Shown: positions 13,450 through 15,251 of the stretch, piece by piece
Position numbering within the stretch: position 1 is the first letter of the stretch
Layout of the letters: each line of letters begins with the position of its first letter
NCBI GenBank assembly: GCA_002269645.1
Contig: NIVC01000750.1
Location: 62,001 to 126,000 of the forward strand
DNA: 64,000 nucleotides
Reading direction: 5' to 3'
Source: Macrostomum lignano
Lineage: Eukaryota
Notes under the pieces: generated by a model
What the model was told of the DNA's origin: nothing
What the model saw: the letters and a program-made list of their open reading frames with translations, nothing else
Database searches by the model: none
Translations under genes and position numbers: made by a program

Positions 13450-14483
13450 AATCAACTATGCTATCTTTACTGCTTCTCTTTAAGATTTCTGCCACTTGTC
13501 TTGCTTGCGATTTTCTATTGCGATTTAAAAGCAGAATTGTGTTTCCGTTTCCATGGTAACAGTCCTTTCATCTCTCATCAAAGTCTCCCAATCAGCGACT
13601 TCCCTTTTTGATTGAAAAAGCGAATCAAACAAAGTCGCATTGATTCCCGGGATTTCATTATTTTCCAAATCCCCTCCCTCGCATTGTGCCGAGTCACGTC
13701 TCTCAGCCCTTCCCTGTGTTTTTTCGTATAGAAAATCCCATTTCACTTCATCCGAAAATTCATCTGTTACTTCCTAGGGCCACTTCCGGTAGCTGACAAT
13801 CCCAATTTTGTGACACGTCTGCTGCACAAGCAGGAGACTTTCATCATTGATGGCGCTCTGTTCTCGCCATCGTGCCCTGATGCCAGCAGGTGACGTCTTG
13901 CTCAGGGACTACTCAAACATGTTTTTGATGCATTTCCAAGCGCAGAAGAATATTGATGTTGAATCTCTTTTATTTACAGAATACAGTTTTTTAACTGCAT
14001 CAATTTTTGTTAACAATATCCGTTAATTCTGCTTCAGGGACTGTGTGCACCCTGGTGCAGCTCAAGCGACATTGAGAGGCATTGCTGCCCTCTCCGCCGA
14101 CTCCCCTGAGCAGGCACACAAGCGCGCGGATACGTGACGCAGTCATACGCACAGGCACGCACTCACACAGAAGTGTACAGCAGCCCTAACTTTGTTTATC
14201 GTTAGACATGTACACTTCACTGTGCCTTGAGGTTTGGCTCTCAAGGCCGTTAATTGCACGAGCAGAGCCAAGCCGAGATTTCAATTCACCTTCCAATTAA
14301 TGTGACTGCACTTCGAGACTGGGCTGCTGATGACCTATAAGAGCGCCTTGCTTGACCACCGGGCTATCCCCCCCTTCCCCCTAAGATGCACCATGTCAAA
14401 TGCACTTTTCAAGTCAAAGAATGAAGACTAGATGGAATTTTTTGGAATGGAAATGTAGCACTTGATCAGTCGTGCAAACAGGT

Positions 14484-15218
14484 TGTGAGTCGGGGTCGCA
14501 TGTGTACTCTACTTATGTACATCGGGCCGCTCCCAATCAATATGAATCGGAGGGGTGCTTCCATAGCGCTGGCCTGCTGCTCTGCTGCTTCCTTTGCTCT
14601 CGCCTTTTTAGGACTTCGTCAAGCGAGATGTCCTTAGTTTGCAGCAGGTCTCAGCGCAGCCTCTCAGATGAGCAGTAGGCGACTATCTTGTGTCGCGAAT
14701 GAGAAAGTCTTGCAGCTGTCCAAAGTTGCAGGCGTCGGCTGCCTTGCGCAGCCGCTGATGCCACTGGTCCACTGACTCTTCTGCCTGCTGTGGACAGGTC
14801 TCAAATTTGAAGCGGAGGAAGGCAATGTTGTTCTTTCCGTCCCAATGTTGCTGGATGTTTTTCACGAGGTCCTTGTGACCCTCACCTGCCGCGATCTGGT
14901 TCTTCTCAACTACATTCTGCAGTTCCTCTCCGGCCGCATAAAGAAGCAGCTGCTGCGCCCTTTTCTCGTCAGAGATTCCGGCCGCTGCGATTTAGGTCTC
15001 AAACCTGCGAGCCCAAGCTGCCCCACGCTGCGCAGTGGTGTGAGTGTCGCCGTCTATTGCAAACGGGCCGGGCGGCGCTAGTGAAATTTGCTGTGTCATG
15101 CTGCTTATCAGTTCGCGGCTTGCGACGCCATTAGAGTGAGTAAACTCAGACGGTTGGCGCGAGAACCCGCAACCACTAAATGTACATAATTAAAGTACAC
15201 ATGCGACCCCGACTCACA
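14484..15218 (-). mobile_element. 735-bp element: decayed gypsy-type gag fragment bounded by 39-bp terminal inverted repeats, TG..CA ends, 5-bp TSD CAGGT
   Basis: TIR TGTGAGTCGGGGTCGCATGTGTACT(C/T)TA(C/A)TTATGTACAT at both ends (2 mismatches). CAGGT at 14479-14483 and 15219-15223. gag from ATG 15099: PPGPFAIDGD..WARRFET*IAAAGISD..LLLYAAGEEL..RFKF..QQAEESVDQWHQRLRKAADACNFG..LIRD, with stops and frameshifts. Confidence 0.8.
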
Positions 15219-15251
15219 CAGGTGAGAGCCAGTTTTCACCTTAGCAGTGGA

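Follow-up and report, generated by a model that had tools for sequence, protein, structure and literature searches.

Two Defective Ty3/Gypsy Insertions in Macrostomum lignano Carry U3 Ends on Both Sides and Probably Arose by Template Switching during Reverse Transcription

A 735-bp unit at positions 14484-15218 of the window (the whole 64,000-nucleotide stretch of DNA that was analysed) carries inverted terminal arms inside a perfect 5-bp target site duplication (TSD). The unit is a defective derivative of a Ty3/Gypsy retrotransposon, without a direct 3' LTR, polypurine tract (PPT) or pol, and its two ends are U3 on both sides to the last base, the U5 end differing from the fourth base on. A second insertion of the same small family has the same build. 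This U3/U3 build is apparently undescribed: a literature search that took in few subscription or older retrovirology papers, and not Repbase, showed no LTR insertion ending in U3 on both sides, so that a precedent may exist. Both insertions are probably the outcome of a template switch with PPT-primed plus-strand DNA, which would have made a cDNA with two U3 ends that was then inserted in the normal way by the family integrase. The window copy, with neither 3' R nor PPT nor pol, would not retrotranspose again. Its parts are as follows.

14479-14483, plus strand: left copy of the TSD, CAGGT, identical in the homologous copies on contigs C190 and C1816
14484-14559, plus strand: inverted copy of LTR nt 1-76 (U3 end), forming the far end of the element, placed by alignment
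14557-14559, minus strand: junction of gag and inverted U3, with 3-nt microhomology
14557-15099, minus strand: decayed 5' part of gag, about 181 codons, stopping short of the zinc knuckle
15118-15130, minus strand: primer binding site (PBS), 13 nt complementary to the 3' end of a host tRNA-Ser(AGA)
15132-15218, minus strand: remnant of the 5' LTR, 87 of 167 bp
15180-15218, minus strand: LTR nt 1-39, which has kept its pairing with the inverted arm (39-bp terminal inverted repeat, TIR)
15219-15223, plus strand: right copy of the TSD, CAGGT, identical in the C190 and C1816 copies

Compared with its parent, the window copy consists of 5' LTR, PBS and gag to parent nt 712, followed by LTR nt 76 to 1 in inverted orientation. 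The preliminary description of this DNA had reported a 39-bp TIR with two mismatches and a perfect CAGGT duplication, and both are present: the arms at 14484-14522 and 15180-15218, 39 nt each, are complementary at 37 of 39 positions, and CAGGT is found on either side (a direct match of 5 bp has a computed chance of about 0.001). The pairing of the ends is thus real, although the full inverted arm measures 76 bp, 39 of which are still partnered, and it matches the family LTR of C347 at 73 of 76 positions. The 39-bp TIR is a leftover of this 76-bp repeat, because a 54-bp deletion after nt 39, common to all three homologous copies, cut the 5' LTR. An extra 27-bp deletion is confined to the window copy, and the two deletions account for what had been taken as an LTR-like leader of about 88 bp; it is indeed an LTR, of 167 bp originally. 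Two of the 39 sites differ between the arms; the variant of the inverted arm is also found in a solo LTR on C84, which could mean that two different templates were used. Microhomology at the junction is 3 nt long (chance 5%). The LTR breakpoint moreover lies inside an 8-nt word in which reverse-complemented LTR nt 78-71 equals gag about 20 nt further on; it is one of five such words in 4.4 kb, with a chance of 0.6%, and was noticed after the fact. DNA folding of the elements only restates the terminal stems.

The gag remnant starts with an ATG at 15099 and reaches the junction at 14557 on the minus strand. Its decay, recognized before, comprises a stop at 14994-14992 and a frameshift near 14689, and its length is about 181 codons instead of the roughly 190 first given. 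Pfam returned no match for the 138-aa piece of window gag itself; the piece is named gag because it is colinear (73% at the nucleotide level) with the start of the gag-pol frame of a sister family. The sequence at 15130 on the minus strand, previously called PBS-like, is confirmed by its 13-nt match to the tRNA-Ser(AGA) 3' end; the matching tRNA 3' end is present 17 times in the genome and was called tRNA-Ser(AGA) at two of the three loci scanned. Outside the element, a high-copy interspersed repeat with 2520 first-look candidates occupies 14040-14330. About 1 kb beyond the element, from 13446 leftwards, lies what is likely the signal-peptide start of a gene on the minus strand, oriented like the 5' LTR of the element.

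The parent is an ordinary Ty3/Gypsy element, as judged by its direct LTRs, PBS, PPT and gag-PR-RT-RH-INT order. It is represented by one full-length insertion found on C347, C2209 and C3982, with 167-bp direct LTRs (a direct repeat of 169 bp, 97-97.6% identical) that end in TG..CA, and with a purine tract before the 3' LTRs. Zinc knuckle, protease, RT, RNase H and integrase (rve, H2C2) were recognized in its pieces by Pfam, so that the choice raised earlier between a parent with direct LTRs and one with TIRs is decided for direct LTRs plus integrase. The full-length parent is broken and holds a nested element, which belongs to a second LTR family with 251-bp LTRs on the opposite strand (L051:5500-8175 on C347). 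In the sister family, which is about 70% identical, the order gag, protease, RT, RNase H and integrase is seen by Pfam in one 1349-aa frame; a scan of viral contigs with its protein gave no match. The LTR, the tRNA-Ser PBS and the gag of the window element have the sequence of the parent, at about 90% across gag, and its 5-bp TSD and TG..CA ends are likewise those of Ty3/Gypsy elements, from which it departs in an inverted U3 standing where direct 3' LTR, PPT and pol should follow. A 1.2-kb internally deleted member with direct LTRs, PBS, PPT and a TSD matching at 4 of 5 positions was also observed (L007:875-2087 on C662; also on C1472 and C1296).

A search of the 764-Mb animal assembly with the whole element, in which 40 of 80 candidates were scored, yielded two more full-length matches, on C190 and C1816. 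Both carry the TSD seen in the window and the same flanks, 91-98% identical over kilobases, and the unique left flank of the window element occurs only at these three loci in the genome. By sequence comparison, the copies in the window, on C190 and on C1816 are one insertion in three homologous copies. Taking the three full-length matches as a multi-copy family was rejected, since the flanks are homologous (91-98%); copies with both TIRs and different TSDs, which the preliminary description proposed to count, were not among the window-like matches, all of which have the same flanks and CAGGT. For many insertions of the family, two to four loci, in many cases three, have the same insertion between flanks that are 91-99% identical, and because of this recurrence at homologous loci raw match counts overstate copy number. 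The C1816 homologue shows a tandem expansion of units of about 46 nt within gag (L013:1675-1915), which is absent from the other two.

The second U3/U3 insertion was found via a loose end in contigs assembled from public sequencing runs. It is a 456-bp unit at L010:1490-1945 (C3253), also present on C1989 and C1515, with ATGCC perfectly duplicated on both sides and with flanks that are unrelated to those of the window and occur at these three contigs only. It consists of LTR nt 1-79, a changed stretch with a deletion, gag to parent nt 589, and LTR nt 17 to 1 inverted, and both of its inward-facing ends are U3 to the last base. U5 and PBS are missing, and a heavily changed 35-nt stretch marks that break. 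At the gag/U3 junction the microhomology is 5 nt against the family LTR (chance 0.4%) and 6 nt against its own left end (0.13%). The left U3 carries a variant at nt 17 that is in none of the other family LTRs printed, and because of this variant the two arms are identical over 17 nt. A pol fragment of the same family (L054:4990-5343, L056:5510-5847) lies about 3 to 4 kb from this insertion, in opposite orientation and outside its TSD.

Could the inverted ends be produced by two opposite insertions at the same base on different homologues that later recombined, or by an assembly error? Opposite-facing LTRs are the route to Ginger1 TIRs considered by Bao et al. (PMC2836005), and coincident insertions would supply them. 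The TSDs of the family all differ, however, so that the same base would not be expected to be hit twice at two sites. Against an assembly error, three diverged contigs carry each U3/U3 structure, and for the window element contigs from four of four public runs (three studies; one of the runs may be the source sample) span the stretch from the left TSD over the inverted arm to the junction, differing from the window by 3-7 letters. Runs with small word shares (X3, X4) or zero shares were left out of the evidence, and X3 was without junction coverage. These explanations are largely refuted, and we regard them as extremely improbable. No empty allele was present at any of the three assembly loci of each site, and none was seen in the contigs of the four runs, which drop rare variants and among which none listed bridges the right TSD. 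The only joint among those listed in the run contigs was the left junction of the second insertion itself.

The survey of the family combined end patterns with a search by LTR, for which 40 of 41 candidates were scored, and 13 LTR-bearing sites were distinguished by their flanks. Nine of them have both ends and a 5-bp TSD (six perfect, three with 4 of 5 positions): two U3/U3 insertions, two with direct LTRs and five solo LTRs. The remaining four are truncated or without a TSD. The U3/U3 build therefore accounts for 2 of 9 both-ended insertions, and no U5/U5 pair was found among 26 U5-pattern matches. Every end-pattern match could be assigned to an LTR copy or to one of the two U3/U3 insertions. 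As controls, no inward-facing pair was found in the sister family (77 of 77 matches on 48 contigs), nor within 10 kb among the 100 listed of 151 LTR-start matches of the third family, the one nested in the parent. The end patterns need 12-16 nearly exact bases, so that shorter or more decayed arms would be missed in the family and in both controls alike. Fisher's tests gave p of 0.04-0.07 with an assumed instead of a counted number of independent sister insertions, and were set aside as evidence. In the sister family, LTR starts lie 376-380 bp apart in the same orientation on C1003, C3280, C4145, C4799 and C4844, possibly as a miniature derivative or as one insertion seen five times. An opposite-strand pair of sister LTRs on C1279 was rejected as a parallel case; it faces outwards and lies inside a palindrome that runs past the element. 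That palindrome (L095:5079-9901) is 99.5% identical over more than 5 kb and is either a real inverted duplication or an assembly artefact.

The restriction of the build to this family, 2 of 9 insertions versus none in the 77 sister matches or the 100 listed of 151 matches of the nested family, is what one would expect if a two-U3 copy had arisen once and had then moved as DNA, in the manner of a MITE, through the Gypsy integrase or a related enzyme. Both insertions would then be descendants of that copy, the second further deleted, and its layout is indeed derivable from that of the first by deletions; the two also group weakly in the tree. Only two sites are known, however, and no coding or autonomous element with these inverted ends is present among 20 and 23 end-pattern matches. 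In 294 aligned columns of gag, the two U3/U3 elements are 6.8-7.8% apart, whereas the window element is nearer (4.3-6.4%) to the normal full-length copy. Only one gag site is common to the two U3/U3 elements, as opposed to 4 and 10 changes private to them, and two sites link the window element with the full-length copy. The best tree joins the two insertions weakly (66/70), and the alternative is not rejected (p-AU 0.126). Integrases, moreover, normally only integrate, and the mechanism of excision is called unknown even for Ginger1 (Bao et al., PMC2836005). A single origin followed by DNA movement is therefore unlikely in our view. The first of two readings offered in the preliminary description, a MITE-like derivative mobilized by a gypsy or Ginger integrase, is unsupported, and unlikely even with the weak grouping in the tree: the three window-like copies are one insertion, the parent has direct LTRs and no autonomous partner was seen among the end-pattern matches. 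The different junctions and TSDs suggest two events, and we read the two insertions as separate accidents, even though the second could be a deleted descendant of the layout of the first.

The alternative offered earlier, that a fold-back or template-switch cDNA was inserted by way of two identical ends, agrees with the two U3 ends, the microhomology and the family-length TSD, although a one-off it was not, since the second insertion has the same build. In a template-switch insertion, an abnormal structure is enclosed by one TSD and microhomology is seen at the switch, and both features are found here. From exact U3 termini with family-length TSDs at two sites we infer that integrase made the insertions. 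The short arms do not extend past the LTR, which makes PPT-primed plus-strand DNA the likely partner in the switch. Repeated priming at the PPT is described for Ty3, with a build-up of dead-end plus strong-stop DNA (PMC5371799). Here, too, the PPT would have started plus-strand synthesis at least twice. A short plus-strand product (76 nt for the window element, 17 nt for the second) may then have jumped to gag and been extended like a minus strand; alternatively, a plus strand crossing gag may have jumped to spare plus strong-stop DNA and copied it to its 5' end. Both routes would leave the same sequence, from which the strand that moved cannot be read; the first would give a clean duplex with one abnormal step. 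Integrase would next have accepted the two U3 ends, and later deletions would have shortened the 5' LTR. Template-switch products with normal TSDs are known from cereals, in direct orientation (PMC1950507).

The positions of the breakpoints bear on the donor of the second end. Both times the short arm ends within the LTR (nt 76 and nt 17), and the long arm soon after the start of gag (parent nt 712 and 589). With breakpoints uniform over 4.8 kb, a short arm in the LTR is expected in 7.6% of events, and one together with a short gag arm in 1.2%. Two separate cDNAs might each have given a U3 end to one integration complex, after which the host trimmed the free ends and joined them at a microhomology. 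The same TSD, U3/U3 ends and microhomology junction would be expected, and one variant of the window's inverted arm is indeed common to another family member and not to its own 5' LTR. Such an origin nevertheless requires that both molecules lost about 4 kb, twice, and that on each occasion one of the breaks fell in the LTR (7.6% per event, or 1.2% with a long arm as short as observed, under the uniform model). It also predicts U5/U5 counterparts, none of which is among the 26 U5-pattern matches, and it does not suit the private variant shared by the arms of the second insertion. We consider it improbable.

Less credible still is a normal insertion later rearranged by host replication or repair, in which two template switches put the element's own left end, inverted, where the 3' part had been and left the old TSD untouched. 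The microhomology at the junctions, the identity of the second insertion's arm to its own left end, and the TGT/ACA shared by the LTR ends are compatible with this. The return switch, however, must hit the TSD border exactly at two unrelated sites using 3 nt, although a 6-nt match between the two LTR ends lies a few bases inward and would have left a U5-type terminus. Nor is any flank copied in reverse, and all three homologous copies per site share the structure. A template switch during reverse transcription is thus preferred here, as a model that draws on two events and proposes the intermediate steps. One observation against it is that the second insertion is nested in the anatomy of the first, having a shorter arm and a shorter gag. 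The junction of the second insertion could be a later deletion, and a second event is in any case needed there, because U5 and PBS are absent and the 35-nt stretch is heavily changed. The model also leaves unexplained why U3/U3 insertions occur in this family and not in the two control families.

Complex insertions in Triticeae, rice and maize likewise enclose an abnormal structure in one TSD, attributed to a switch of RT followed by normal integration, but in the cases described by Sabot and Schulman (2007, PMC1950507) two units are joined head to tail, with three LTRs in direct orientation, whereas the switch in the window element changes strand and gives two U3 ends. Inverted segments and strong-stop mis-transfers arising in the particle are also features of autointegration inversion circles (PMC7197481) and of defective HIV-1 proviruses with inversions or asymmetric LTRs (PMC9278108). 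Autointegration joins an LTR terminus to the interior (PMC7197481), whereas the U3/U3 joints lie at LTR nt 76 and 17 and both termini are free; with no LTR terminus joined internally, an autointegration product was rejected. The passages of PMC7197481 and PMC9278108 concerned describe no provirus with two U3 ends. General background is given in PMC6894440 and PMC12789967.

Elements with inverted ends offer further comparisons. The TIRs of Ginger1 and Ginger2/Tdd start with TGTNR and the window element with TGTGA at both ends, and its original 76-bp arm falls inside the 40-270 bp range of Ginger TIRs (Bao et al. 2010, PMC2836005). Ginger TSDs, on the other hand, are mostly 4 bp (5 bp in TDD-4/5), whereas CAGGT and ATGCC are 5 bp as in the LTR parent, and the Ginger1 target CCGG/CCGT is absent from the TSD of the window element (PMC2836005). 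The window element, moreover, holds gag only and no transposase, and no copy family was seen; a Ginger assignment was rejected for lack of an integrase-like transposase between the TIRs and of an autonomous partner with the same ends. DIRS elements are also retroelements with inverted terminal repeats, but they use a tyrosine recombinase, whereas the parent has rve and H2C2 domains, direct LTRs and TSDs, which excludes that class. MITEs occur as many copies of uniform structure at unrelated sites, and the two sites found here differ in length (735 versus 456 bp) and in junction. TRIMs have short direct LTRs with PBS and PPT, and the window element, with inverted ends and no PPT, is not one of them.

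The path from LTR retrotransposons to DNA transposons with TIRs has been called unclear, two LTRs facing each other by chance being one suggestion (Bao et al. 2010, PMC2836005). As the two insertions show, units whose inverted integrase ends match can arise from an LTR family within a single target duplication; the insertions further suggest that, in vivo, U3 on both sides is acceptable to a Gypsy integrase. They carry gag and not integrase, and so are not Gingers, but such ends can form. If a Gypsy element had turned at a single step into a TIR element that was later cut out and reinserted as DNA, gaining another 5-bp TSD, which we think doubtful, an intermediate of the proposed Gypsy-to-Ginger1 transition would have been caught, and there would be a first indication that an LTR integrase can mobilize a chromosomal element; if there are only two dead copies, they are a neat curiosity. 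LTR finders that need direct repeats would miss U3/U3 copies and TIR finders would file them as MITEs, and for this reason the class may be overlooked. The copying slip proposed here would be a one-step route for LTR elements to inverted ends like those of DNA transposons.
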